Notes: a model not told the origin generated them from the letters alone. A stretch of 64,000 nucleotides of DNA from Gaiellaceae bacterium (GCA_036270155.1 DATBDB010000169.1:4316-68315); one strand, 5' to 3'; positions 7,565 through 23,825 are shown, counted from the first letter of the stretch. Program-made: numbers and translations.

Positions 7565-8722
7565 ATGGCAGAGGGATACGAAACCGCGGTGCTGATCGCG
7601 TGCAAGAACGGCGAGGCGACGATCGGGAACACCGTTCGCTCTGCAGTTGGCCAAGCCGACGTCTACGTCGTGTCCGACGGTTCCACCGACCGCACCTGCG
7701 AGGTCGCCGAAGCAATGGGAGCGCACGTGCTCGAGCTCACGACGAGCAGCGGCAAGCCGGTGGCCCTGCGAGCCGGCAACGACCGATTCGCGCTCGCTGC
7801 GCGCTATCGCCGGATCGCCGTGCTCGACGACGACACAACGATGGAGCCGAGATACATCGCGCGGCTCGAGAAGAGGATGGACTCGGACCCGCGCATCGCT
7901 GCGGCATCAGGGCGCATCGACTCGCTCTGGGATCACACGCGCCGCTGGAACCCGTTCATTGCCATGCGCGCGTTCACCTACTGGTCGTACCAGGTCACCG
8001 TCAAGCGCGGACAGAACGCGCTCCGTGTCGTGAACGTGATCTGCGGCGCGAACACACTCTTCCGTTCGGATGTGTTCGCGCAGTTGATCCGGGACGACGT
8101 CCCGTACGCCGTTGACGACATGTACTGGGTGGCCGAGATCGTCCGCCGCAAGCTCGGGCGCGTCGAATACGTTCCCGCCGCGCGCTCCTGGACGATCGAT
8201 CCGCATCGCTTTCGCGATTGGTACCGGCAGACGGTGCGCTGGTCCTGGGCGCAGTTCCAGTCCATCCGCGGCCATCGATTCGGGCGCCCGCTCGAGCGCA
8301 CGCGCGGGCGGGGTGTCGGCGTGCGTGTCTCTGGCTTCGACCTTGCCTACCTCGCGCTGATGTTGGACTGGATTCCGTACATGCTCGAACCGTTTGTGCT
8401 TCCTCCCGTTGCGTTCTTCCTCCGCGACTGGATCGACCCTCTGTGGTTCGGCATCTTCTACCTCGCCTCGAGCGTGGGCTGGATCGCCATCGCGGCGGCA
8501 GCCCTGCGAAAGCCGCGGCTGGTTGTGCTCGCTCCGGTTCTCATCGTGCTCGATCTCGTGTATCGCGCTTGCATGCTGCACGCCTTCGTCAAAACCCTGG
8601 TGACACCGAAGATCGAAAGTTGCACGTGGGTCTCGCCGCCGCGCTTCGCGCTCGAGACCGCTCCACCGACGGTCGCCGCTTCGGCCGCGCAACCAGTCAA
8701 ACCACCTCGACAAGGAGAATGA
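7565..8722 (+). CDS. processive family-2 glycosyltransferase (PgaC/NodC/cellulose-synthase-like) with a C-terminal TM bundle
   Basis: VSDGSTD, LDDD and QTVRWSW (QxxRW) motifs. Hydrophobic C-terminal third. Confidence 0.85.
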   Translation: MAEGYETAVLIACKNGEATIGNTVRSAVGQADVYVVSDGSTDRTCEVAEAMGAHVLELTTSSGKPVALRAGNDRFALAARYRRIAVLDDDTTMEPRYIARLEKRMDSDPRIAAASGRIDSLWDHTRRWNPFIAMRAFTYWSYQVTVKRGQNALRVVNVICGANTLFRSDVFAQLIRDDVPYAVDDMYWVAEIVRRKLGRVEYVPAARSWTIDPHRFRDWYRQTVRWSWAQFQSIRGHRFGRPLERTRGRGVGVRVSGFDLAYLALMLDWIPYMLEPFVLPPVAFFLRDWIDPLWFGIFYLASSVGWIAIAAAALRKPRLVVLAPVLIVLDLVYRACMLHAFVKTLVTPKIESCTWVSPPRFALETAPPTVAASAAQPVKPPRQGE

Positions 8723-9726
8723 CCGTGAAGGCATTGTTGACCGGGGGCGCCGGCTTCATCGGCTCCCACCTCTCTGAGTTGCTGCTCGAAAACGATGACG
8801 AGGTCTACGTGCTCGACGATCTGTCGACCGGATCGGTTGAGAACGTCAGCCATCTGCTCGACCGTCCGGGGTTCCACCTTGTCGTCGACAGCGTGTTGCA
8901 TCCTGCGGTTGTCTGCGAGCTCGTCCACAAGGTCGACGTCGTCTATCACCTTGCTGCAGCTGTCGGCGTGAAGACGATCGTGGAGCAGCCGGTCCGAACG
9001 TTGCACGTGAATCTCAAAGGCACAGAGACGGTTGTCGATGCGTGCTCGAAATTCGACAAGCCGGTCCTGATTGCGTCCACGTCGGAGGTGTACGGCGACC
9101 ACCGCACGGAGACGCCGCTGCGGGAGGATGCACGGCGGATCTATGGATCCACGACGCAGAAGCGTTGGGCGTACGCGGACTCGAAGGCGATGGACGAGTT
9201 CCTCGGGCTTGCCTACCACGAGGAGCACGCGCTCCAGACGGTGATCGTCCGCTTGTTCAACACGGTCGGGCCGAGGCAGACAGGCATGTACGGGATGGTC
9301 GTCCCGCGGTTCGTGGAACGCGCCCTGCGCGACGACGTGATCGAGATCTACGGCGACGGACTGCAAACCCGCTGCTTCTGTCATGTGAGCGACACCATCC
9401 GCGCTCTCCGCGATTTGATGGCCGATATCGATCGCACGACCGGCCAGATCTACAACGTCGGGGCGCCGAACCAGATCAGCGTGATCGGACTTGCCGAGCG
9501 GATCAAGCTGATGACCGGCTCGGGCTCGCCCACCGTTCACGTGCCATTCGCGGAGGTCTACGGCTCCGGCATCGACGACATGCTTCATCGCGTTCCGTGC
9601 GTCGACAAGGTGCGCGACGCGATCGGGTGGCTCCCGATGCGCACGCTCGAGGACATCCTTCGCGACGTGATCGAGCATGCAACCGCGCCGGTCGCGGCCG
9701 GCGTACCTGCGGAGATCGCGGCCTGA
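8719..9726 (+). CDS. NAD-dependent nucleotide-sugar epimerase/dehydratase (extended SDR)
   Basis: TGGAGFIGSHL, STSEVYG and YADSK. ATG at 8719 overlaps the GT2 stop (ATGA). AAGGAG RBS. Confidence 0.85.
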   Translation: MTVKALLTGGAGFIGSHLSELLLENDDEVYVLDDLSTGSVENVSHLLDRPGFHLVVDSVLHPAVVCELVHKVDVVYHLAAAVGVKTIVEQPVRTLHVNLKGTETVVDACSKFDKPVLIASTSEVYGDHRTETPLREDARRIYGSTTQKRWAYADSKAMDEFLGLAYHEEHALQTVIVRLFNTVGPRQTGMYGMVVPRFVERALRDDVIEIYGDGLQTRCFCHVSDTIRALRDLMADIDRTTGQIYNVGAPNQISVIGLAERIKLMTGSGSPTVHVPFAEVYGSGIDDMLHRVPCVDKVRDAIGWLPMRTLEDILRDVIEHATAPVAAGVPAEIAA

Positions 9727-9748
9727 ACCGGCGTCGGTTCGCACTGAG

Positions 9749-11899
9749 ATGAGCTGCCGCCTGACCTTCGTGTGCATTGGCCTCTTCGCGGTCGTCGGCG
9801 CGGGCCCTGCACATGCCGCCATCCAGGTGGCGATCACAGCGCCTCTGGCGCAAGCGAACGTCGGGGACGTTGGCGCAATCGTTCCCGTCAAGATCGACGC
9901 GTCTGCCGACCAGGGGATCTTCGGCGTGCAGTTGCTTGTCGACGGAACCCCATACGGGTCACTCGACACGACGCAGGTGGATCTCTACCGGTACGAGATC
10001 GCGTGGAACACCGCCGGCCTGGCAGTGGGCGCGCACACGCTCACTGTGGTCGCGACGGACTGGTCGTCGGTCGGCGGTGGCATTCAACTTACGTCGAGCC
10101 CGGTGACGGTGGACGTCGGACCCTCATATCCGACGATTGCGCTGACGGCCCCCGTCCCGGGCTCATCCGTTCACGGATCGATCGCGATCCGCGCGACCCA
10201 GACGAGCGCGGTGCTTCCCGCGTCGGTCACGTACTCGGTCGACGGGCAGCCGCTCCCGTCCGAGATCTGGGACACCACCACGACGCCCGACGGCGTCCAT
10301 TCCGTCTCAGCGACCGTGACAGACGGACGCGGTAAGACCGCGACCGCGACTGCGCAGGTGACCGTCGCCAACACGCCGGTGAACCTGCCGATCTCAGCGG
10401 TGCGCATCAGCGCGCCCGGCGACTACACCTTCGCGACCAACCCGACAACCGTCGTGGTATCGAATGTGACCGGCGGCACAGCCCCCTTCACCGGTCGGCT
10501 GCTGGTCGATGGTGTGGCGACGTCGCTCGTGCCCAACATCGTCGGAAGCACCCTGACTTTCCAATGGAGCACCAACGCACTGGTGGCGGGGTCGCACACC
10601 CTCACAGTTGGCGTCAGCGACGCGAGCGCGCTGACGGCGACCTCGCCGCCAGTCCACATCACAGTTGACAACGCGCCGCCGGTCGCGGTCATGTATCAGC
10701 CGTTGCCGTTCGCCGTGACCAATGGGCCGACGACGCTGCAGGTGCACGCGTCCGACGGCTACGGCGTCAAGTCGGTGCAGTTCACAATCGACGGGTCGCC
10801 CGTCGGTCCGCTGCTGACGACACCGGGCGCACCGGGCTCCTACCTCTACTCGACCATCTTCGACACGGCGACGTTGGCGGCCGGCTCGCACGCCGTTTCG
10901 GCAACTGTCGTCGATAACGCCGGAAATATCACCACAGCGAACCCCGTGTCGATCATGACGGGACCGGTCCAGACCGTGCCGGTGCTGAACTACCACGGGA
11001 TCATCGGGCCGCTCGATGCGAGCCCCGACATCTATGACCAGACGCCGGCGCAAGCCGACCAGGAGCTCGCGTATCTGAAGACGAACGGCTATCAGTCGCT
11101 GACCGTCGAGCAATACCAATCCTGGCTCGCGACGGGCTCCCTCCCGGCCGGTCTCACGAAGCCGGTCCTGATCACGGTCGACGACGGTCTCACCGACCAG
11201 TTGGCCTGGGATCCCCTCTTGCAGAAGTACGGGCTCACGGCCGTCCTCTACGTCGTCACGGGCTTTGCCGACAACAACACGCCGGGCGCAGACGACCCCG
11301 TCTCGAACATGTCGTGGCAGCAGATCCAGACGCTGGCCGGGAACGGGCGCTGGCAGATCGGGTTCCACGCCGGTCGCTACGGTCACGGGGAGTTCAGCGA
11401 CCGCACGAACACCATCACGCTCGCACCCGGGCAAGTCCAGCGCTACTCCGCCGCTTGCGGGAGCTACTACAGCTGCCTCGGCACGATCACCACGACCACC
11501 GGGTCGGGAGCGACCCGGCAGGTGACCACCGCGGCCGAGACGGCCGCTCAGCTCCAGGCGCAGGTCGCTGCCGAGATCCAGGCGGGCCTCGCCGAGCTCA
11601 AGCAACAGGTCCCGAGCGCCAGCCTGGCTTCTTGGGCGTGTCCCTGGAACGATTGCGGTCAATGGACGACCTTCTACAACGACCCCAGCGGCGCGGTCCA
11701 GTCCTGGCTGCCCGGATTCGCCTCGTCGACGTTCCCGATCGTCTTCACGCAGACGAATCCCGTCACGTATGCGCTCGCCTCGGGCACCGTCGGTGCGCTG
11801 AACGGCTTCCACCGGCGCTACCGCTTCGAGGTCCACACGGACACGACGCTCGCCCAGTTTGCCGCCGCCCTCGATGACACGGCGTTCGCGAGGCCCTAA
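9749..11899 (+). CDS. secreted Ig-like-repeat protein with a C-terminal CE4/NodB-type polysaccharide deacetylase domain
   Basis: Signal peptide MSCRLTFVCIGLFAVVGAGPAHA. Several repeats of about 90 aa (AGSHTLTV/AGSHAVSATV). PVLNYHGI and VLITVDDGLTDQ. Paralogue at 14635..16845. Confidence 0.8.
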   Translation: MSCRLTFVCIGLFAVVGAGPAHAAIQVAITAPLAQANVGDVGAIVPVKIDASADQGIFGVQLLVDGTPYGSLDTTQVDLYRYEIAWNTAGLAVGAHTLTVVATDWSSVGGGIQLTSSPVTVDVGPSYPTIALTAPVPGSSVHGSIAIRATQTSAVLPASVTYSVDGQPLPSEIWDTTTTPDGVHSVSATVTDGRGKTATATAQVTVANTPVNLPISAVRISAPGDYTFATNPTTVVVSNVTGGTAPFTGRLLVDGVATSLVPNIVGSTLTFQWSTNALVAGSHTLTVGVSDASALTATSPPVHITVDNAPPVAVMYQPLPFAVTNGPTTLQVHASDGYGVKSVQFTIDGSPVGPLLTTPGAPGSYLYSTIFDTATLAAGSHAVSATVVDNAGNITTANPVSIMTGPVQTVPVLNYHGIIGPLDASPDIYDQTPAQADQELAYLKTNGYQSLTVEQYQSWLATGSLPAGLTKPVLITVDDGLTDQLAWDPLLQKYGLTAVLYVVTGFADNNTPGADDPVSNMSWQQIQTLAGNGRWQIGFHAGRYGHGEFSDRTNTITLAPGQVQRYSAACGSYYSCLGTITTTTGSGATRQVTTAAETAAQLQAQVAAEIQAGLAELKQQVPSASLASWACPWNDCGQWTTFYNDPSGAVQSWLPGFASSTFPIVFTQTNPVTYALASGTVGALNGFHRRYRFEVHTDTTLAQFAAALDDTAFARP

Positions 11900-11997
11900 G
11901 GTGAGCACGACGGTCGAACCGGTTCGCCGCGGAGGGATTGCGGAGGCCGCCGTGTGTCGATAAGTGGTCAGTGGGTGCGGTCTCTCGGAGGGGATGA

Positions 11998-12678
11998 GTG
12001 GTCATGGCGTCCGGCATAACACGCCGAATCCGCATCCTGCTCGCGGACGACCATCCGTTGTTCCTTGTCGGCGTGCGCGCGACGCTCGAGGCGGATGGCG
12101 GCTTCGAGGTTGTCGGTGAGGCCCATTCCGGCCCGGAGGTGCTCCCTCTCGCCGGGCGCTCGCAGCCCGACGTGGTCCTGCTCGACATCGTCATGCCCGG
12201 CATCGACGGCCTTGGCTGCCTCGATCGCCTGCGGGATCGCTATCCGGAGATCATCGTCGTGATGTTCGCCGACGTCGCCGATCCTGGGCAGATCAATGCG
12301 GCCTTCGTGCGAGGGGCCAAGGGCTTCATCGTGAAGAGCGTGCGGGTGGCCGATTTCTCGGTTGCGATCCGGCAGATCATCGAAGGAACCGCGTATCAGG
12401 CGCTCGGCATGCCCGTGTTGAGCCCGGAGACGGTGGCTTCGGACGCAGGCCTGACGACGCGCGAGCTGGAGATCCTCCGGCGACTGATCCATGGGCTTTC
12501 GAACAAGGACATCGCTGCCGAGTTGTCGATCGCGGAACAGACGGTGAAGTTCCACCTGACGAGCCTCTACCGCAAGCTCGGAATCAGGAGCCGCACGCAG
12601 GCCGCTCGGTGGGCGCACGAGAACGGGATTCACCCGGGGGACCCGCCGGCCAGCCCGGTGGCGCCGCTGTCGAGGTAG
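11998..12678 (+). CDS. NarL/LuxR-family response regulator (canonical)
   Basis: ADDHPL, VLLDIVMPGIDG and FIVKS. LTTRELEIL...AEQTVKFHLTSLYRKL. Confidence 0.9.
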   Translation: MVMASGITRRIRILLADDHPLFLVGVRATLEADGGFEVVGEAHSGPEVLPLAGRSQPDVVLLDIVMPGIDGLGCLDRLRDRYPEIIVVMFADVADPGQINAAFVRGAKGFIVKSVRVADFSVAIRQIIEGTAYQALGMPVLSPETVASDAGLTTRELEILRRLIHGLSNKDIAAELSIAEQTVKFHLTSLYRKLGIRSRTQAARWAHENGIHPGDPPASPVAPLSR

Positions 12679-12827
12679 GGCGGCTGGCGTAAGCGCCAGG
12701 TGGGCCAGACCTCTGGGCGGTGGCCCCTGGACCTTCCTGTGGCTTGACTGTCTAGCGGTCGCCGTCGGTCGACGCTCGACCGAACTCGACCGAATCCTGC
12801 CATCCCCGCACAGGAGGTCTGCTGCCC

Positions 12828-13727
12828 GTGGTTCGCAGAGACTATTCGGCTGGTCCCACGTCCCGGCGCTACCCGCTTGCGCGCACACGGACGTCCCCGC
12901 TTCGGCTCGCACTGGCCATCGTCTCCTCACTGGTCGCCGCTACAGCGCTTGCCGCAGCCGGCCATACGTCTCCGACGACGACTTCGCCGGACGGCTCGAG
13001 CGCCTATCCGATGCACACCGGGATCGTCGGGACGACCTTCTGGGTCGGTGAGATCTTCAACGCGAACGCCGCCGACGGCTCCCAGGTCTGTTCGACCTAC
13101 GACTCCAACTGGGCGCTGCACTGGTCGGGCGGCGTCAACCAGGGCGCGTCGGCTCCCGGCACCGACTGCGCGGGCGCGCCTTACGGCGGCTGCGACGGCG
13201 TCCCGAGGGGAACGGGCGCCTCGTTCACGTGCACAACGGAGGCGCGGACCTCCGGCAACGGCAACTTCCCGACGAGTGCGTCGGTCCATCCGGCGGAGAA
13301 CCCCTTCTACCTGGATCTTCCCTACGACGACGTCAACGATGCGGCGGCGTTCGCCCAGCGTTGCAGCACGATCCCGTGGGCGTCGCAATATCCGGCCTCG
13401 TCCTGCCAGGACCCTCATTTCTCCTACATGAAGAACCATTGGGTGAAGCTCATCGGGGAGAACGGCAGCGTCTGTTACGGCCAGATCGAGGACGCCGGGC
13501 CGTTCACCTACAACGACACCACGTACGTCTTCGGCTCGGGAGACGCACGTCCGCAATCGGCCCAGGCGAATAACGCCGGCCTCGACGTGTCGCCTGCTGT
13601 CAACGGCTGCCTCGGCTTCAAGGAGCTCGACGGCGACACCGACAAGGTCTCCTGGCAATTCGTCGACGCATCACAGGTGCCGACAGGCCCCTGGACGCAG
13701 ATCGTCACGACGCGCGGCGTCTCCTAG
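12828..13727 (+). CDS. secreted protein of unknown family; the C-terminal half looks like a DPBB/RlpA-type barrel (inference)
   Basis: Signal peptide. Blocks conserved with the paralogue at 17011..17781: TxFWxGE, ENPFYLDxPY, PWAS, MKNxWVK, VCYGQxEDAGP, NAGxDVSPA, GPW..VTT. Confidence 0.7.
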   Translation: MVRRDYSAGPTSRRYPLARTRTSPLRLALAIVSSLVAATALAAAGHTSPTTTSPDGSSAYPMHTGIVGTTFWVGEIFNANAADGSQVCSTYDSNWALHWSGGVNQGASAPGTDCAGAPYGGCDGVPRGTGASFTCTTEARTSGNGNFPTSASVHPAENPFYLDLPYDDVNDAAAFAQRCSTIPWASQYPASSCQDPHFSYMKNHWVKLIGENGSVCYGQIEDAGPFTYNDTTYVFGSGDARPQSAQANNAGLDVSPAVNGCLGFKELDGDTDKVSWQFVDASQVPTGPWTQIVTTRGVS

Positions 13728-13983
13728 CCCGCGGTCCGCGATCGCCCCGTCGCCGCCCTACGGCGACAAGGCGATGCGGATCTGCAATGACCCTCGCCGA
13801 ACGTGTTTTCGCAGGCGTGAATGCGAAATAGCTGCCCTAGAAAACGAGCTTCGACCAGGTGGTTCACCGCTGCGGGCACCCGGCGAAGCGTGGACGTGGA
13901 GGTGATGAACAGGAGCTGCGCTCGACCTTCGATGTTGGACCGGGGGGTCGAAGGATGGTTCCGATCTCGGGCGCAGGCCGGCA

Positions 13984-14526
13984 GTGTTGTCCATTGCTGA
14001 GAGGGAGGTCAAGCCGGTGAGTAGTTCTCGGTCACGGCATGGCGAGGTTGAGAGTGAGCCCGCACGTGCGTCGCGCGACAGGCTGCTGAGGATCATGGTG
14101 GTCGACGATCAATGGATCCGCCGGGTCGCTGTTGCGGCCGCCCTGAAGGCAGATACCAGTCTCGAGATTGTGGGAGAGGTTCCATGCGGCTCCGACGTTC
14201 TGTCGCTCACGCGGTCGGCGGCACCGGATGTCGTCCTCCTCGGGACGCGCATCCCGAACCAGGACGGCCTCGGCTGTCTCTCGCTGCTGCGTGAGTGCCA
14301 TCCCGAGGTAAAGGTCGTCGTCTTCTCGGCCTCGGCTGATCTCGATCACGTCGAGGACGTGTTTCGCCTGGGAGCGTCCGGCTGCATTCTTTCGACGATT
14401 GCCCCCCTCGAGCTTGCAGCTGCGATTCGCAGGATCGTTGAAGCAGCCGAGTATCAGGCGAGCGCGCCGTTCCACAAGAGTGCGCCCGCGCACCTGTCGG
14501 GACTGGAGGCTCGAGAGCTGAACTGA
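13984..14526 (+). CDS. degenerate NarL-type receiver with truncated HTH; pseudo-receiver or pseudogene (start may be ATG 14095)
   Basis: VVDDQ pocket is kept, but VVLLGTRIPNQDG has Gly at the phospho-Asp position and ILSTI has no Lys. The ORF stops at LEARELN, where paralogues begin the HTH. Confidence 0.6.
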   Translation: MLSIAEREVKPVSSSRSRHGEVESEPARASRDRLLRIMVVDDQWIRRVAVAAALKADTSLEIVGEVPCGSDVLSLTRSAAPDVVLLGTRIPNQDGLGCLSLLRECHPEVKVVVFSASADLDHVEDVFRLGASGCILSTIAPLELAAAIRRIVEAAEYQASAPFHKSAPAHLSGLEARELN

Positions 14527-14634
14527 GCCGATTTCGGACGGTGGTGCACACGGCGCGTTCTTAGACGTTTGTCAGGTGGCTTCCCACTCGCGGGACTGGA
14601 CCCGCGCGACAGATGTCCGGCAAGGATCGCAGGC

Positions 14635-16845
<2,211 letters not shown>

Positions 16846-16854
16846 CCCGCGGTC

Positions 16855-17052
16855 TCAGGGCCAGAAGACTTGTCGCGTGGTGACGACGCGGCGCCCCAGC
16901 GGTACCGAGGGGACCGGGGCCGCCGAGGGCCGAGGACCTGTCGCGTGGTGACGAGCGGCGCCCAGCGAGAACCGAGCGATGCCTTTAGGGCCAGAAGACT
17001 TGTCGAGCCTTTAGGGCCAGAAGACTTGTCGCGTGGTGACGACGCGGCGCCA
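16855..17052. repeat. four direct copies (two good, two decayed) of the last ~40 nt of gene 17011..17781
   Basis: TCAGGGCCAGAAGACTTGTCGCGTGGTGACGACGCGGCGCC at 16855 and TTAGGGCCAGAAGACTTGTCGCGTGGTGACGACGCGGCGCC at 17011. A truncated copy lies at 16985-17006 and a diverged copy at 16927-16963. Confidence 0.9.
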
Positions 17053-17781
17053 GGGGCCGGGGGGAACCGCCGCCGCTTCGACGAATCGCCAGGAGAGCTT
17101 GTTCTCGTCGTTGTTCACGCCGGAGAACGCGAGACAGTCGCGGATTGCCGGGCTGACGTCCATGCCTGCGTTGTGCGCGAGACCGCTCGCCGGCCGCGCA
17201 TCGACACGAGAGAAGACGTAGTTGATGTCGTCGTAGACGTAGGGCCCGGCGTCCTCGACCTGTCCGTAGCAGACGCGCATCCGGCCGCCGGCAACGCGCC
17301 ACATCTTCACCCAGCGGTTCTTCATGAGCGAGAACGGTTTCCCCGTCTTTGCCGACTGCGCGAGCTGCGCCGCGTAGCGACTCGCCCACGGGACCGCCGT
17401 GCGATCGGCGCGCGGTTTCCCGTTGTCGGCGAAGTCGCTATAGGGCACGTCGAGGTAAAACGGGTTCTCGCGCGGCGTGAACGGAGGGAAATAGGGGAAG
17501 CGGCGCACAGACCGGTAGTCGTCGAACCCGCCGTAGTGCGCCTTCCACTTATCGTCATACGCAGAGAGTGCGTTGTCCTCCGACGAGCCATTGCCAACCG
17601 GCTCGCCGATCCAGAAGACCGTCGCCGTGATGTTCGAATGCACGGGATAGCTCACCGTGCTGTCGCGGGTGTGCGGAGCACCGAGTGCGGACGCGCTGCC
17701 TGTTGCCGCCGCAGCAGCAGCAGCGATTCCAAGGATCCGTGCACGACCGCGTGTCACCCCACGACCTTTGCCACCTTGCAC
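17011..17781 (-). CDS. secreted protein of unknown family, paralogue of 12828..13727
   Basis: Ala-rich signal-like N-terminus (RILGIAAAAAAATGSASALG). Same conserved blocks as the paralogue, ending VVTTRQVFWP. Confidence 0.75.
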   Translation of the reverse strand: MQGGKGRGVTRGRARILGIAAAAAAATGSASALGAPHTRDSTVSYPVHSNITATVFWIGEPVGNGSSEDNALSAYDDKWKAHYGGFDDYRSVRRFPYFPPFTPRENPFYLDVPYSDFADNGKPRADRTAVPWASRYAAQLAQSAKTGKPFSLMKNRWVKMWRVAGGRMRVCYGQVEDAGPYVYDDINYVFSRVDARPASGLAHNAGMDVSPAIRDCLAFSGVNNDENKLSWRFVEAAAVPPGPWRRVVTTRQVFWP

Positions 17782-17955: not shown

Positions 17956-18147
17956 GTGAATAACGAACGTCGAGCGGACGCCGGGCACCGGCCGGGGGCG
18001 CCGCGCCTGGTCGAGGACACCGACGGTGTTGCGAACCTCTACATCCCGTGCCCGGCTTGTCGCGCGCCGATCGCAGTCGACCGGCCGTTGGCGGCGTTGC
18101 CGCTGACGCTCACCTGCCCGGCGTGCTCCGCGGTCCTCGCCCGCTAG
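17956..18147 (+). CDS. MJ0042-like CPxC...CPxC zinc-ribbon miniprotein, paralogue of 5650..5835
   Basis: IPCPACRAPI...LTCPACSAVLAR at the C-terminus. Confidence 0.55.
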   Translation: MNNERRADAGHRPGAPRLVEDTDGVANLYIPCPACRAPIAVDRPLAALPLTLTCPACSAVLAR

Positions 18148-18470
18148 CGGGCTACTCCTTGACGAAAGCCCCACGGTCTCTCGACCTCCGGAGGGCCTGG
18201 CTGCGCGCGCGGGTTCGTACAGTCCGCGTATGCCCATCGTTAACCAATGCACGGTGCCCGGGTGTGCGACCCTCACCATGGGCGTTCGCTGCCTCGAGCA
18301 TGAACTTCCCGACTTCTTGTTCTTGTCGGCTGGCCGCCGCCCGCGGCGGCAACCGCGCGTAGCCCACCGCGCGAGGACTTTCGGCTAAAGCTTCGCAGGC
18401 GAGGGGGCCTGCGTTGACACTCGCCGTGGCCGCCGCCGCAAGCGGCTTCGGTGAGAGGGGCGATGAACAT

Positions 18471-18505
18471 AACGCGGTCGCGCAATGCCCTCGCGCGACC
18501 GCGTT
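18471..18505. other. perfect 13-bp stem hairpin in a long intergenic region
   Basis: AACGCGGTCGCGC / GCGCGACCGCGTT with a 9-nt loop. No clear U-tract on the plus strand. Confidence 0.4.
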
Positions 18506-18672
18506 CGCCTGCCGCCCCAAGGTCCACGTAGGACGAGTCGCTGGTCGAGGTGCGACCAGCCGATCGCATGGGGTGGAGCCTCGTGCTCGACCGAAGAATC
18601 AGCCATACCGGATCGAGCGATTCGAGGCAGTCGGCGGCTGCAACTCCCGCCCAAATCAAGCAAGGAGCATCA

Positions 18673-18816
18673 ATGAGCAACATCCAGGTCGCCGGCGCAC
18701 GGGCCCTTCCATTCACCGGACTCGCGACGCTCCCGATCCTGCTGATCGGAGCTGCGATCAGCCTCATCGGATTCGTGCTGATGATCCTCCGGCCGAAGCC
18801 GGCTCGTTCGCACTAG
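18673..18816 (+). CDS. 47-aa miniprotein that is essentially a bare LPXTG-type sorting signal (LPFTG + TM + basic tail)
   Basis: AAGGAG RBS at 18662-18667, ATG at 18673. MSNIQVAGARA-LPFTG-LATLPILLIGAAISLIGFVLMIL-RPKPARSH. The TAG stop directly abuts the sortase GTG. Confidence 0.65.
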   Translation: MSNIQVAGARALPFTGLATLPILLIGAAISLIGFVLMILRPKPARSH

Positions 18817-19509
18817 GTGCGACGCAAGGTCGGTTTCGCGCTACTCGTCTTCGGCCTGAGCGTGCTGGCTTGGGCGGGTGTATCGCTGCGCTGGGGCGAC
18901 CCACTCACCTCGATCTACACAGCACACGAGCAGCGCGTGCTTGCCGGGCAACTCGCGAAGGAGCAGCGCAGCTGGCTTGCGTCACCGGTTCGCGCACGTG
19001 CCCTGGTTGACAAATCGGCCACGGTAAGCGCGGCTCGGATCATCAAGCTTCGCGCGCAGCGGTTCGCGCTGAGGCTCCACGACGGCGCGCCGATCGGGCG
19101 AATCGTCATTCCCAAACTCGGGTTGAACATGATCGTCGTCGAAGGAACATCGGAGAGAGATCTCGCGAAGGGACCCGGTCATTACAACGCCGCATCGGGC
19201 GTAGCCACGGCGCTCCCCGGCACCGGCGGTGTCGTTGCCATTGCTGGGCATCGCACGACGTTCCTGCATCCATTCCGCTACGTCGACCGGCTGCGTTCCG
19301 GCGACAACGTCTATCTCGAGATGCCCTACGGCACGCTGCGCTATCGGATCTACTTCCGGAAGATCGTCGCTGCGACCGACTGGTCGATTCTCGGCGGGCG
19401 TCCGTACGAGAAGCTCGTGTTGAGCGCATGCCACCCGCTGTACTCGGCGACCCATCGCATCGTGATCTTCGCGCGGCTCGCCGGCGCATCGACGAAGAGC
19501 AGCCTGTGA
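18817..19509 (+). CDS. sortase (class E-like transpeptidase)
   Basis: N-terminal TM segment, AIAGHRTT (His), LVLSACHP (catalytic Cys) and THRIVIFARL (Arg). Confidence 0.85.
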   Translation: MRRKVGFALLVFGLSVLAWAGVSLRWGDPLTSIYTAHEQRVLAGQLAKEQRSWLASPVRARALVDKSATVSAARIIKLRAQRFALRLHDGAPIGRIVIPKLGLNMIVVEGTSERDLAKGPGHYNAASGVATALPGTGGVVAIAGHRTTFLHPFRYVDRLRSGDNVYLEMPYGTLRYRIYFRKIVAATDWSILGGRPYEKLVLSACHPLYSATHRIVIFARLAGASTKSSL

Positions 19510-19540: not shown

Positions 19541-20227
19541 TTAGCCGGTGTCTCCGGCAGGAACGTTGAGGCTGAGCCCGGCTACGGTCATAGGGACCGC
19601 TGCGGCTGCACGCTGTTCGATCTCCCGCCATGCCTTGTTCCGGATCAGCTCCCGTGGAGCCGGCCAGGAGCCTCCGACTGCCGCGACGTTGCGGAGCTCG
19701 AGGTAGTCCGCGGCGTTGCCCGCGTCGACACCTCCGCTCGGGCAGAAGCGCGCATCGGGGAACAGTTCGCCCAGCGCGCCGAGCATCTTCGCGCCTCCCA
19801 TCTGCGCGGCCGGGAAGAACTTGAACGTCCGCGCTCCGTGCTCTCGCGCGAGCATCGCCTCCGACGGAGTGGCGACGCCGGGCAGAAGCGGTAGTCCGGC
19901 CTGCGTTGCGGCGGCAACGAGCTTCGGGGTGCAGCCGGGGCTGACGGCGAAGTCCACGCCGAGCTTCGAGACGCGGACGACCTCCTCCGGACGGGTCACG
20001 GTTCCCGCTGCGACCGTCATCCGTTCGACACTGCCGACGATTCGCTCGATCGCGTCCCATGCGGCGGGCGTGCGCAGCGTCACTTCGATTGCGCGCAACC
20101 CTCCGGCCGCAAGGGCGTTCGCCAGCGGGAGAGCATCGTCGGCATCGTCGATCACGACCACCACGACGACGGGCGCGTCGCGAATCGTGTCGAGGATCTC
20201 GCCCGTGTCCGGGAACGCGGCCGTCAC
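19541..20227 (-). CDS. eda: 2-dehydro-3-deoxyphosphogluconate (KDPG) aldolase
   Basis: [29 protein letters not shown] and CPSGGV. GTGA overlap with edd. Confidence 0.85.
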
Positions 20228-22083
20228 GTAGTACCGTTGTCCGCGAACGAGCTCGCGCCTTCCTCCGGAGACGAGACGGCGCCGCGCAGCGTTGTGAAGA
20301 GCTCGCGTCCCATGCCATGGACGCCGCGGTCCGGCGGCGCCGCCGGACGACGGCGAGCGAGCTCGCCGTCGGTGCGTTCCACTTCGAGGACCCCGCTGTC
20401 AGCGTCGAGCGTCACCAGGTCTCCGTCGCGAAGCCGAGCCAGCACACTCGATGCGATCGCCTCGGGCGAGACGTGAAGCGCCGTCGGGACCTTGCCGGAT
20501 GCGCCTGACATCCGTCCGTCGGTGACGAGAGCGACCTCGTGGCCGCGGTCCTGCAGCACCCCGAGCGCGGGGCTCAGCTTGTGCAGCTCGGGCATCCCGT
20601 TCGCACGCGGTCCCTGGAAGCGGAGAACGACGACGACGTCCCGGTCGAGCTCGCCTCTCGCGAAGCACTCGAGCACCGCGTCCTGGTCGTCGAAGACCGC
20701 GACCGGCGCGCGTACGCGTCGGTGCTCGCGCTTGACGGCCGAAACCTTGCAGATCGCGCGCCCGAGGTTGCCGCTGACGAGGCGAAGGCCGCCCTCAGCG
20801 TCGAACGGATCGTCGACCGAGCGAAGGACCTCCGGGTCGAGTGAACGTGCGGGCGGCGGGCCCCAGACGAGCGCGCCGTCGTGCAGAAAGGGTTTTCGCG
20901 CGTAGGCGGCGAGCCCGCCTCTGGCAACGGTCCGAGCGTCGGCGTGCATGAGGCCGGCCCGGAGCAGTTGGCCGACAAGGAAGCTCGTCCCGCCTGCGCG
21001 CTCGAACTGATTCACATCCGCTGCGCCGTTCGGGTAGACGCGCGCGAGCAGCGGCACGGTCCGCGAAAGGTCGGCAAAGTCGTCCCAGGTCAGGGTGATG
21101 CCGGCGGCGCGTGCGATTGCGACGAGATGGATCGTGTGGTTTGTCGATCCGCCGGTCGCGAGCATCGCCACGATTCCGTTGACGAGCGCGCGCTCGTCGA
21201 TGATCTCGCCGATCCCGTAGCCGTCGTCCGCGCCAGCGAGCTCCGCGACGCGCTTTCCCGCGGCGGCCGTCAGCGCAGTGCGCAACTCCGTCCCGGGGTT
21301 GACGAACGCCGCGCCCGGCATGTGGAGACCCATCAGCTCCATCAGCATCTGGTTGCTGTTTGCCGTTCCGTAGAACGTGCACGTTCCCGGCGAGTGGTAC
21401 GACTGTGCCTCCGCCTCGAGCAGCTTCTCGCGGCCGACCTTGCCCTCCGCGTGGAGTTGCCGGATGCGGGACTTCTCTCTGTTCGGCAGACCCGAGGGCA
21501 TCGGCCCCGCCGGGACGAGGATGGACGGCAGATGACCGAAGGCGAGCATGCCGATGAGGAGGCCGGGGACGATCTTGTCGCAGACGCCGAGCGCGAGCAC
21601 GCCGTCGAAGAGGTCGTGCGAGAGCGCCACTGCGGTCGACATCGCGATCACGTCGCGGCTGAACAGGCTCAGCTCCATTCCCGTGCGCCCTTGCGTGACG
21701 CCGTCGCACATTGCCGGTACGCCGCCGGCGAACTGGGCCACGGCGCCGCCCTCCGCGGCGGCCGCCTTGAGCAACGCTGGATACTCGCCGAGCGGCTGGT
21801 GCGCGGAGAGGATGTCGTTGTAGGCGGAGACGATCGCGAGGTTCGGCTTCACGTCCGCCAGCAGGTCGTGCTTCTCCGCGACCGCGCACGCTGCGGCGCC
21901 GTGAGCGAGGTTCCCGCAGGAGAGCGTGCGCCGCTGCGGACCTTCCGACTTCGCTTGGCGCACCCGCTCGAGGTAGGCGCCGCGCTCTACGCGGCTCCGC
22001 TCGGCGACGCGCTCCGTCACCTCGAGCACCGTCCCGTCCAGGTGCTGCCCGTTCTTCTCGCGCGCGCCGCTGATCCTGTTCAA
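20224..22083 (-). CDS. edd: phosphogluconate dehydratase (IlvD/Edd family)
   Basis: [17 protein letters not shown] and CDKIVPG. I place the start at TTG 22083 behind a GAAGGAG RBS. ATG 22131 and the ORF-track start 22176 are alternatives. Confidence 0.8.
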
Positions 22084-22289
22084 CAGTGCGTCACTCCTTC
22101 TGAGTTGGGACTCGCGGCCGCCCCGATGCATCGGCCCACGACGTTCAGACTGCGGTGCCTCGCCGGCGCGAACCACTGGCCCTCGTGACGGAGTGCGCCG
22201 TCCGTGTGGCCCCTGCGGCCGATGGGCCAGGTTGAGTGCCGACTACGGGACAGGTGTGCATGAGGATCCGCTGAAGCAGGCTCTCGGGC

Positions 22290-23825
22290 GTGGCGCAGTC
22301 GAACGCAGGACGAGTGATGCGCGTCGACGAGGTCGACCGTGTCGAGGAGTCGGCGGGCGCGCTGCGCAGCCGGTCAGAGCCGTGCGTGATCGTCGTGTTC
22401 GGCGCCTCCGGCGATCTCGCGAGACGGAAGCTTTTTCCCGCGCTCTACTCGCTGGCCTACCGGCGGCTGCTGCCGCGGGAGTTCGGGTTGGTGGGTGTCG
22501 CGCGGATGCGGCAGTCGACCGCGCAGTTCCACGCGGCGATGAAGGAGGCGGTGCAGGAGTTCGGCCGCGACCCGTTCCGGCAGGACGTCTGGGACGAGCT
22601 CGAGGAGGCTGCCGTCTACATCTCCGCCGACGCAGACGGCAAGTCCGGCGCGGACGAAGTGGGCGATGCCCTGGCGCAGATCGATCGTGAACGCGCGACG
22701 CTCGGCAACCGCCTGTACTACCTCGCCGTGCCGCCCGGCGCCTTCGAGCCGATCGTCGAGCAGATCGGTCGTCGCAGCGCACGCGAGGGTCGCGTGCGGC
22801 TGGTCGTCGAGAAGCCTTTCGGTCGTGACCTCGCGACGGCGCACTCGCTGAACGAGCTCCTTCGCCGCTGGTTTGTCGAGGAGCAGATCTTTCGGATCGA
22901 CCACTACCTCGGCAAGGAGACCGTCCAGAACATGCTGGCGCTGCGGTTCGCGAACGGCATCTTCGAGCCGATCTGGAACCGCCAGTTCGTCGATCACGTG
23001 CAGATCACGGTCGCCGAGTCGATCGGGATCGAGGGACGCGCCGGCTACTACGAGCGTGCGGGCGCGATCCGCGACATCTTCCAGAACCACCTGCTGCAGC
23101 TGCTTGCGCTGATTGCGATGGAGCCGCCCACCGACTTCAGCGCCGACGCGGTTCGAAACGAGAAGGTCAAGGTGCTGAAGGCACTGCAGTCACCTGGCCC
23201 CGCGATGATCGTGCGCGGCCAGTACGGGCCCGACGTCGCAGGCAGCGAGGTCGTGCTGGGCTATCGCGACGAACGCGATGTCGCCGCTGCCTCGTTGACC
23301 GAGACGTTCTTCGCCGCGAAGCTCTTTGTCGACAGCTGGCGCTGGGCAGGCACGCCGTTCTACGTGCGCACGGGCAAACGCCTCGCGCGCCGCGAAACGA
23401 CGATCGCGATCCAGTTCAAATCGGCGCCGCGGCCGCCGTTCGAGGAGATCTCCGCCGACGGCCTCCGTCCGAACGTCCTGCTCATCCGCGTTCAGCCCGA
23501 CGAAGGAGTCTCACTCGAGATCGGCGCGAAAGTGCCGGGATCGGGAATGAACATCGGCACGGTGCAGCTGGACTTCCAGTACGGCGGCTCCTTCGACATC
23601 GATCTCCCAGAGGCCTACGAGCGCCTCGTGCTGGACGCGATGCTCGACGACGCGACGCTGTTCACGCGCGAGGACGAAGTCGAGGAGCAGTGGAAGATCG
23701 TGGACGGGATCGTCGGCGGCTGGCTCCGCGACCGCCCGGCGTTCCCGAACTACACCGCGGGCACCTGGGGCCCGCGAGCTGCCACAGACCTGATTGGCCG
23801 CGACGGCCGCGCCTGGCGGCAGTAG
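22290..23825 (+). CDS. zwf: glucose-6-phosphate 1-dehydrogenase
   Basis: VVFGASGDLARRKLFPAL, RIDHYLGKE and EKPFG. Start is GTG 22290 or ATG 22317. Confidence 0.9.
   Translation: MAQSNAGRVMRVDEVDRVEESAGALRSRSEPCVIVVFGASGDLARRKLFPALYSLAYRRLLPREFGLVGVARMRQSTAQFHAAMKEAVQEFGRDPFRQDVWDELEEAAVYISADADGKSGADEVGDALAQIDRERATLGNRLYYLAVPPGAFEPIVEQIGRRSAREGRVRLVVEKPFGRDLATAHSLNELLRRWFVEEQIFRIDHYLGKETVQNMLALRFANGIFEPIWNRQFVDHVQITVAESIGIEGRAGYYERAGAIRDIFQNHLLQLLALIAMEPPTDFSADAVRNEKVKVLKALQSPGPAMIVRGQYGPDVAGSEVVLGYRDERDVAAASLTETFFAAKLFVDSWRWAGTPFYVRTGKRLARRETTIAIQFKSAPRPPFEEISADGLRPNVLLIRVQPDEGVSLEIGAKVPGSGMNIGTVQLDFQYGGSFDIDLPEAYERLVLDAMLDDATLFTREDEVEEQWKIVDGIVGGWLRDRPAFPNYTAGTWGPRAATDLIGRDGRAWRQ

Follow-up and report, generated by a model that had tools for sequence, protein, structure and literature searches.

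What can a sortase do with a signal for cell wall sorting that carries almost nothing to be sorted? The question is raised by a locus of a Gaiellaceae bacterium (GCA_036270155.1, DATBDB010000169.1:4316-68315). A 47-codon open reading frame (ORF) encoding little besides an LPFTG sorting signal lies here directly against a sortase gene, within a stretch of 64,000 nucleotides that was analysed as a whole and is called the window below. An earlier note, made from the DNA alone, had described the ORF product as a complete tripartite sorting signal with near-zero cargo and no signal peptide, a description that the family data presented here support and strengthen. Judged from sequence comparison, this miniprotein is the product of a real gene under protein-level selection, which acts on the LPFTG motif, the N-terminal tail (N-tail) and one face of the membrane helix. 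It accompanies a single clade of sortases, and the role tentatively favoured is that of a minimal sortase substrate. The two genes are laid out as follows, with positions counted from the first letter of the window.

18662-18667, plus strand: Shine-Dalgarno sequence AAGGAG, read directly, with a 5-nt spacer before the ATG at 18673
18673-18816, plus strand: miniprotein gene, 47 codons plus TAG, encoding MSNIQVAGARALPFTGLATLPILLIGAAISLIGFVLMILRPKPARSH
18673-18705, plus strand: miniprotein N-tail, residues 1-11, MSNIQVAGARA
18706-18720, plus strand: miniprotein LPFTG motif, residues 12-16
18721-18789, plus strand: miniprotein hydrophobic span of 23 residues, residues 17-39, LATLPILLIGAAISLIGFVLMIL
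18790-18813, plus strand: miniprotein basic tail, residues 40-47, RPKPARSH
18814-18816, plus strand: miniprotein TAG stop, abutting the sortase GTG at 18817
18817-19509, plus strand: sortase gene, 230 amino acids, with a GTG start directly after the miniprotein stop
19249-19251, 19429-19431 and 19456-19458, plus strand: sortase catalytic residues His145, Cys205 and Arg214
Within the sortase, in order: N-terminal membrane helix (residues ~6-25), WGDPxTSxYT segment outside the membrane, helical stalk, catalytic domain

The miniprotein and its sortase

The ribosome-binding sequence, spacer, start codon, 47-residue frame and stop are all as the earlier note gave them when the sequence is read again. 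The same ORF has already been annotated by NCBI as a hypothetical protein (HEX4679786.1) of a Gaiellaceae metagenome-assembled genome, from which an identical sortase is recorded as well, and its GC content at third codon positions (GC3) is 0.81, close to the 0.78 of the sortase gene. The possibility, raised in the note itself, that the true start lies elsewhere and yields a conventional secreted substrate is argued against by locus L003, where an in-frame stop occurs six codons 5′ of the miniprotein ATG, and by the lack of in-frame conservation of the upstream region across loci. Database calls that are longer than the miniprotein all include the internal MS start. An alternative ORF of 88 amino acids, opening with GTG at 18550 and including a signal peptide, was considered and rejected, the 88-residue form being absent from the protein collection and the 47-residue form present in it. 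Because only 11-12 residues precede LPFTG and an upstream start is excluded, the miniproteins have no canonical Sec signal peptide. The remaining anatomy of a canonical substrate is found in 22/22 loci, namely LPFTG followed by 21-25 hydrophobic residues and a tail with a net charge of +1 to +5.

Searches of Pfam and NCBIfam, including the curated anchor models TIGR01167 and Gram_pos_anchor, returned no significant match to the miniprotein; the only sub-threshold matches were to the LPxTATN sorting domain (14.9 bits against a cut-off of 32) and DUF3188 (15.8 against 24.6). All 64 kb were also searched in six frames for L[PAS]x[TAS][GSAN] ahead of a hydrophobic stretch and a short tail. Nothing besides the miniprotein ORF was returned, and by this criterion the earlier statement that the window encodes no other LPXTG or LAXTG protein stands.

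The family is large. A profile built from 24 aligned miniprotein sequences retrieved 362 clusters (90% identity) at E values up to 1, and the length is 42-52 residues in almost all of the best 120 of these 362 clusters. An exhaustive hidden Markov model search with a narrower profile gave 24 representatives at 50% identity. Residue statistics were compiled over 124 family members. The motif is LPFTG in 122 and LPLTG in two, and alanine at P3 occurs in none. The protein starts with MS in 122, followed by Gly (84 members), Asn, Ala or Ser. The N-tail before the motif is 11 residues long in 99 members and 12 in 20, contains no Asp or Glu in any member, has a net charge of +1 in 117, and ends in RA right before LPFTG in 91. 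Glycine makes up 26% of it, alanine 17% and glutamine 13%, and there is one Arg or Lys (any Lys in only 8/122 N-tails). Counted from the motif glycine, the conserved positions are Pro+5 (124/124), Gly+10 (123), Ser/Thr+14 (122), Gly+17 (124), Thr+21 (104/124) and Arg+24 (111/124). Since the conserved positions of the span are 3-5 residues apart, they would lie on one face of a helix.

Selection on the protein can be followed in the nucleotide sequences. Beside orthologous sortases 22 distinct nucleotide versions of the ORF were found, all of them complete with Shine-Dalgarno sequence, start codon and stop codon. A purine-rich GGAG-type sequence lies 5-12 nt before the start in 22/22 of these distinct loci; the start codon is ATG in the homologous loci and TTG in one. 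Across the 22 versions the LPFTG codons differ only synonymously, with four Leu, three Pro, two Phe, three Thr and four Gly codons in use. The ratio of non-synonymous to synonymous substitution rates (dN/dS), computed by region over nine independent pairs, is 0.014 for LPFTG plus the next five residues, 0.15 for the N-tail, 0.43 for the rest of the membrane span and 0.78 for the C-terminal tail (C-tail).

Part of this pattern is not peculiar to the miniprotein. Other proteins of 124-246 residues carry an identical LPFTG-x4-P-x4-G-x6-G signal, and those of 124-158 residues have clear N-terminal signal peptides (P0143, P0148, P0150, P0152, P0155). The pattern can therefore be regarded as a working class of sorting signal, and at least Pro+5, Gly+10 and Gly+17 are not special to the miniprotein.

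The gene that follows the TAG had been recognised in the earlier note as a sortase with His, Cys and Arg in order, and its membership of the Pfam Sortase family PF04203 (MEROPS C60) is confirmed at 87.3 bits against a cut-off of 26.6 (E 8.6e-25). It also scores 68.3 against the 39.35 cut-off of TIGR01076. H145 (in GHRTT), C205 (SACHP) and R214 (HR) are invariant in 55 of its homologues, of which 5786 were found, and the start is fixed by MRRK/MxRK in orthologues. The catalytic domain is modelled by AlphaFold2 (AF2) with a predicted local distance difference test (pLDDT) score above 90, and Foldseek returns class D, E and C matches, with E 1e-12 and template modelling (TM) scores of 0.77-0.78 to SrtD and SrtE structures. 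By sequence and by predicted structure the protein thus has a sortase fold with an intact His-Cys-Arg triad, and the closest solved structures on both counts are class E, D and C enzymes. Its sequence places it as class-E-like: the best NCBIfam class model is class E (NF033747), at 104.8 bits under a cut-off of 160, and the adjacent signal is LPFTG or LPLTG in all 124 members and not the LAXTG of class E. Close homologues are labelled inconsistently by NCBI as class D or class E.

Right after the membrane helix, residues 27-36 of the sortase (18895-18924, GDPLTSIYTA) belong to an invariant W-G-D-P-(F/I/L/V)-T-S-(L/I/M)-Y-T segment. Its core is DPFTS in most orthologues and echoes both the LPFTG of the miniprotein and the DP(F/W/Y) lid motif of class C sortases. 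WGDPxT(S/A)xY is also present in related sortases without a miniprotein. From its sequence the segment could be a built-in pseudo-substrate or lid.

The pairing itself was examined from both genes. The earlier note had proposed a search for small ORFs upstream of orthologous sortases, and such ORFs prove to be conserved. When one genome per species was scanned, 80 sortase loci came up. A 45-46-residue MS...LPFTG...basic-tail ORF lies just upstream in each of the four closest evaluable orthologues (L001-L004, 55-58% identity) and is missing beside the more distant sortases. A metagenome scan for the miniprotein pattern yielded 15 loci, with an orthologous sortase in 13/13 that have room downstream. 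Look-ups from sortase homologues (57-65% identity) found a called gene of 46-51 residues with the same architecture directly upstream in 7/7 cases, and look-ups from miniproteins found a sortase directly downstream in 3/3. When 100 sortases are placed in a neighbour-joining tree, those linked to a miniprotein group as a single clade, comprising 22 with the miniprotein, two at contig ends and one (L005) with a different small membrane ORF, that is 22/23 evaluable members; none of the ~70 sortases outside the clade has a miniprotein. The clade is hosted by Gaiellales and related Thermoleophilia, largely uncultured soil actinobacteria.

The gap between the miniprotein stop and the sortase start takes values of 0, 1, 2, 7, 12, 16, 19, 24, 26 and 30 nt. 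Such short gaps without a conserved frame suggest translational coupling and rule out readthrough into a miniprotein-sortase fusion, a candidate that had come up as the two ORFs are in frame in the window. The pair would be co-transcribed, with probably coupled translation, as far as the gene arrangement tells.

Other small partners are seen near related enzymes. In L005 (2165-2624) the small ORF directly upstream of the sortase ends in ...ETPYIAILGVFLFLAPVLVVLMGLGFLAGHLAG and has a single membrane span and no LPXTG; it could be a substitute partner or a degenerate copy. Another Gaiellales sortase clade (L007, L009-L012, L014, L020, L051) always follows a membrane protein ending in ...APRALVAMIASGYLSP...GRYGPPHPPV, which has a 578-codon reading frame in L020 and L051. 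Further Thermoleophilia sortases lie within a few kb of 110-160-residue proteins with LPFTG(L/M)D-type signals. These arrangements suggest, at the level of sequence, several sortase-partner modules in Thermoleophilia.

Fate of the miniprotein

Sortases cut the bond between threonine and glycine of the motif with the active-site cysteine, forming a thioester that is resolved by an amine nucleophile, by default a peptidoglycan precursor. The reading that we favour, while holding it at somewhat below even confidence, applies this chemistry to the miniprotein: it would insert in the membrane with its N-terminus outside and be cut by the sortase, and a 14-15-residue peptide would be transferred to an acceptor, likeliest a peptidoglycan precursor. 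Insertion would be post-translational and independent of a signal peptide, as for Pf3 coat, leaving the 16-residue N-terminal end outside and the basic C-tail inside. LPFTG would thereby come to lie at the outer membrane surface, where it sits in an ordinary sorting intermediate. Cys205 would attack the Thr15-Gly16 bond, leaving a 32-residue C-peptide in the membrane and the 14-15-residue (M)SNIQVAGARALPFT linked to the enzyme as a thioester. Handing this peptide to an amine nucleophile, most probably of a peptidoglycan precursor, would cap the wall or lipid II with a short, glycine-rich peptide of charge +1. The earlier note had likewise proposed a 15-residue peptide joined to the wall or to a partner, or alternatively a decoy, regulator or membrane partner of the sortase. 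The corresponding synthetic peptide for the proposed reaction is SNIQVAGARALPFTGLATLP.

This topology is suggested by the charges: the N-tail carries +1 and the C-tail mostly +3 to +5 (22 loci), so N-out, C-in insertion without Sec is predicted. Transfer to the wall is ranked first because it invokes known chemistry only and because the N-tail, the would-be product, is constrained. Limits on its length, composition and sequence are what would be expected if the released peptide is the product. Several observations weigh against this proposal. When the miniprotein was modelled by AF2 as a fusion to the sortase, with an alignment for the sortase only, residues 1-21 had pLDDT below 50 and LPFTG did not dock; this counts as a weak negative only, since the fusion to the enzyme was artificial and the miniprotein part lacked alignment depth. 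Single-sequence mode gave a pLDDT of 46. The N-tail always has one basic residue and lacks the acidic residues that aid translocation of the Pf3 coat protein. The helix face formed by Pro+5, Gly+10, Ser/Thr+14, Gly+17 and Thr+21 is more conserved than a disposable anchor requires and therefore indicates a specific helix-helix contact, which a partner or regulator would also predict. Finally, a 14-residue wall adduct has no obvious use.

That helix face leads to the main rival, which is possible but appears rather unlikely. Here the miniprotein would be left uncleaved or turned over slowly and would serve as a stoichiometric partner or pseudo-substrate, binding the sortase by way of its own membrane helix and placing LPFTG in the active-site groove so as to stabilise, position, gate or protect the enzyme; it would be a functional analogue, and not a homologue, of SafA. 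Besides the conservation of one face from Pro+5 to Thr+21, the sortase membrane helix has an invariant Gly13 and a nearly invariant Gly6, with the same 7-residue spacing as Gly+10 and Gly+17 of the miniprotein. That the stop adjoins the next start and that the sortase has no ribosome-binding site of its own suggest that the two are made in a coupled manner, and since the signal also occurs in ordinary proteins, these may be further true substrates of the enzyme. None of 96 loci has a SafA-like ORF behind the sortase, whereas such a gene is present in most Actinobacteria (PMC9282373). A pure helix partner, however, would need neither an invariant cleavable LPFTG nor an N-tail of fixed length, and a sortase with an intact triad that meets a perfect motif is expected to cleave it. 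Moreover, the occurrence of Pro+5, Gly+10 and Gly+17 in ordinary substrates means that these residues may be a recognition signal only.

Cleavage as proposed in the favoured reading would also leave a second product, and there is a small chance that the system exists for its sake. The 32-residue C-peptide (GLATLP...RPKPARSH) that stays in the membrane could act on another membrane protein and report sortase or lipid II activity. The most conserved positions outside the motif fall in this fragment, GerE-type response regulators and histidine kinases recur beside the pair, and a gene for a receiver-domain-only response regulator is present in the window at 13984-14526. A precedent is the signalling described for C-peptides of adhesins in Streptococcus gordonii (Hall et al. 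2019, cited in PMC11502775). The proposal is weakened by the adjacent kinases of L096, L099 and L107, which have no membrane helices and hence would not sense a membrane peptide directly. It is weakened further by the nearly neutral evolution of the C-tail and by the constraint on the N-tail, for which it has no need.

An equally improbable fate, argued by analogy, is ligation of the peptide to itself. The N-terminal amine (Ser2 after removal of Met) would resolve the acyl-enzyme, so that a cyclic 14-mer is released outside or a head-to-tail polymer is formed. The pair would then constitute a minimal extracellular peptide-ligation system, a notion to which we give little credence, in which the sorting signal serves as a follower peptide, Ser2 is joined to Thr15 and no transporter is needed. 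An MS start followed by Gly, Asn, Ala or Ser would provide a small, unhindered N-terminus, and the N-tail is of near-fixed length, rich in Gly, Ala and Gln, without a conserved Lys and under purifying selection. In vitro, sortase A cyclises and oligomerises short peptides in a length-dependent manner (PMC5614665). Against this, known sortases use wall precursors or pilin lysines in vivo, and lipid II would compete. From subclade to subclade, moreover, the N-tails differ in sequence, unusually for a bioactive peptide.

The weakest alternative, that there is no functional protein and the ORF is a chance frame, the remnant of a decayed substrate gene or an upstream ORF driving sortase translation, could appeal to its very small size, to the missing Pfam and NCBIfam matches and to the abundance of spurious ORFs in high-GC genomes, but is almost certainly wrong and, on the conservation data, effectively refuted by the 362 clusters of conserved length and motif, the purely synonymous codon changes in LPFTG, dN/dS well below 1, coding-like GC3 and retention throughout a clade in which identity between the sortases has fallen to about 54%. 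An arrest peptide of the MifM/SecM type was also considered and rejected on inference, as the span would still be in the ribosome tunnel at termination and the invariance of LPFTG would be left unexplained.

Leader and neighbouring genes

Conservation among the closer loci extends to the ~190 nt before the miniprotein gene, and an alignment of seven loci defines the following feature.

18483-18661, plus strand: probable 5′ leader of the two-gene operon, with blocks hairpin CTGGTCGAGGTGCGACCAG, GAAGAATCAG and hairpin GCAGTCGGCGGCTGC

The hairpins are CTGGTCG-AGGTG-CGACCAG and GCAGTC-GGC-GGCTGC, accompanied by an invariant GAA(G/C)AAT block. Comparison of the leader with Rfam gave no credible match, the single hit (E 0.22) lying on the opposite strand, at chance level and well short of the gathering score. 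The RNAalifold consensus and the covariation are weak and the folding z-score is -1.8, and an RNA element in the leader was rejected on these grounds.

Upstream of the leader lie two small genes rich in cysteine, which recur as neighbours of the pair. The nearer one, a 52-residue ORF at 18230-18388 (plus strand) beginning MPIVNQCTVPGCATLTMGVRCLEHE, has a Cys-x4-Cys...Cys-x2-His pattern and no Pfam match. The pattern is conserved upstream of the pair in four loci, L098, L099, L100 and, as a fusion with the following gene, L101, and the product is probably a small zinc-binding protein, going by its Cys/His spacing. The other, a 63-residue ORF at 17956-18147 (plus strand), contains two CPxC pairs in a zinc ribbon with only weak Pfam zinc-ribbon hits, and a similar gene occupies the same place in L100. 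Next to them, at 17011-17781 (minus strand), is a gene for a 256-residue protein with a signal peptide and no Pfam match, ending in RRVVTTRQVFWP and kept beside the pair in L098 and L101; it represents an uncharacterised secreted family.

Across loci, the neighbours that recur besides the two Cys-rich genes include a secreted protein of 250 residues, proteins of the SpoIID and CAP-domain kinds, a GT2 glycosyltransferase, an epimerase and large Big_7/Big_13/polysaccharide-deacetylase proteins. In the window a cell-envelope polysaccharide cluster, syntenic with the pair in many loci, occupies 7565-16845. It contains the GT2 glycosyltransferase, an NAD (nicotinamide adenine dinucleotide)-dependent epimerase and two large Big_7/Big_13 plus polysaccharide-deacetylase proteins, one at 9677-11899 and one, which has a Thr/Pro-rich linker, at 14569-16845. 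Free sugar amines arise from deacetylase action, and sortase A can use such amines as nucleophiles in vitro.

Downstream of the pair are sugar genes unrelated to it: a 2-keto-3-deoxy-6-phosphogluconate aldolase at 19541-20227 (minus strand), checked against Pfam, a probable 6-phosphogluconate dehydratase at 20224-22176 (minus strand) and a probable glucose-6-phosphate dehydrogenase at 22290-23825 (plus strand). Together they are genes of the Entner-Doudoroff and pentose-phosphate pathways.

Significance and comparison with known systems

Sortases are understood to anchor exported folded proteins or to build pili. At least several hundred sorting signals without cargo or signal peptide, each tied to its own sortase, would point to a role that the field has not described. 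Candidate roles are to decorate or cap the wall with a short peptide, to control the enzyme through a built-in pseudo-substrate, or to produce a ligated peptide. With a substrate of 46 residues and an enzyme of 230, the pair offers a tractable natural model for how a sortase recognises the membrane part of a signal (Pro+5, Gly+10, Gly+17) and how a protein may reach the sortase without the Sec pathway. It also adds to the biology of Gaiellales and related Thermoleophilia, actinobacteria that abound in soil and of which hardly any have been cultured. If self-ligation were true, the sortase would be a natural macrocyclase or polymerase giving rise to a new class of ribosomal peptide product; butelase-type asparaginyl endopeptidases and the PatG macrocyclases would then be its mechanistic parallels.

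The literature consulted, which is incomplete in coverage so that an earlier description is possible, contains no account of sorting-signal miniproteins lacking cargo and signal peptide. LPFTG was mentioned there only in an unrelated context, with nothing comparable on small or signal-peptide-less sortase substrates.

The closest relatives in design are the canonical LPXTG substrates and their sortases, such as Staphylococcus aureus SrtA and the actinobacterial class E enzymes, with which the pair shares the tripartite signal, the fold and the His-Cys-Arg triad. The miniprotein differs from canonical substrates by the missing signal peptide and a cargo of only 11-12 residues, and from ordinary anchors, which usually have none, by the conserved positions in its membrane span. 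Class E systems typically use LAXTG instead of LPFTG, although SrtE1 also processes proline at P3 in vitro (PMC5148588), and the sortase studied here scores under the class E cut-off.

SafA of Actinomyces oris is likewise a protein of ~50 residues with a single span, linked to an actinobacterial sortase and bearing a conserved extracytoplasmic minimotif by the membrane. It is encoded downstream of srtA, adopts an N-in/C-out orientation, carries PGP and FPW motifs and blocks cleavage of the sortase by signal peptidase (PMC9282373). In contrast, the miniprotein is encoded upstream, is predicted to be N-out/C-in, has LPFTG and neither PGP nor FPW, and shows no sequence similarity to SafA. Homology to SafA or to DUF3188 was rejected on the grounds of the wrong side of the sortase, the opposite topology, the absence of shared motifs and the sub-threshold DUF3188 match.

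In its membrane layout the miniprotein resembles the Pf3 coat protein, which is inserted N-out/C-in by a YidC-dependent, Sec-independent route and likewise, at ~45 residues, begins with a short N-tail, crosses the membrane once, ends in a basic C-terminus and lacks a signal peptide. The part of the miniprotein ahead of the span amounts to 16-17 residues including the motif, with a net charge of +1, and the C-tail fits the positive-inside rule. The Pf3 N-tail has acidic residues that assist translocation, whereas that of the miniprotein has one Arg or Lys and no Asp or Glu. C-peptide signalling in S. gordonii (Hall et al. 2019, cited in PMC11502775) is comparable in that cleavage of the miniprotein would leave a fragment in the membrane and two-component genes lie nearby; the S. 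gordonii C-peptide comes from large adhesins, and the kinases near the miniprotein are soluble.

Dedicated pairs such as SrtB-IsdC, class D sortases with spore proteins and class C sortases with pilins provide the last comparison. The miniprotein is not a pilin-like class C substrate, as it has no conserved pilin-motif lysine (the N-tail contains Lys in only the few members given above). The dedicated pairs also place a sortase beside a protein with its cognate motif and are conserved within a clade. The substrate in those pairs is a secreted protein of full size that has a signal peptide and folded domains, whereas the miniprotein is the signal alone.

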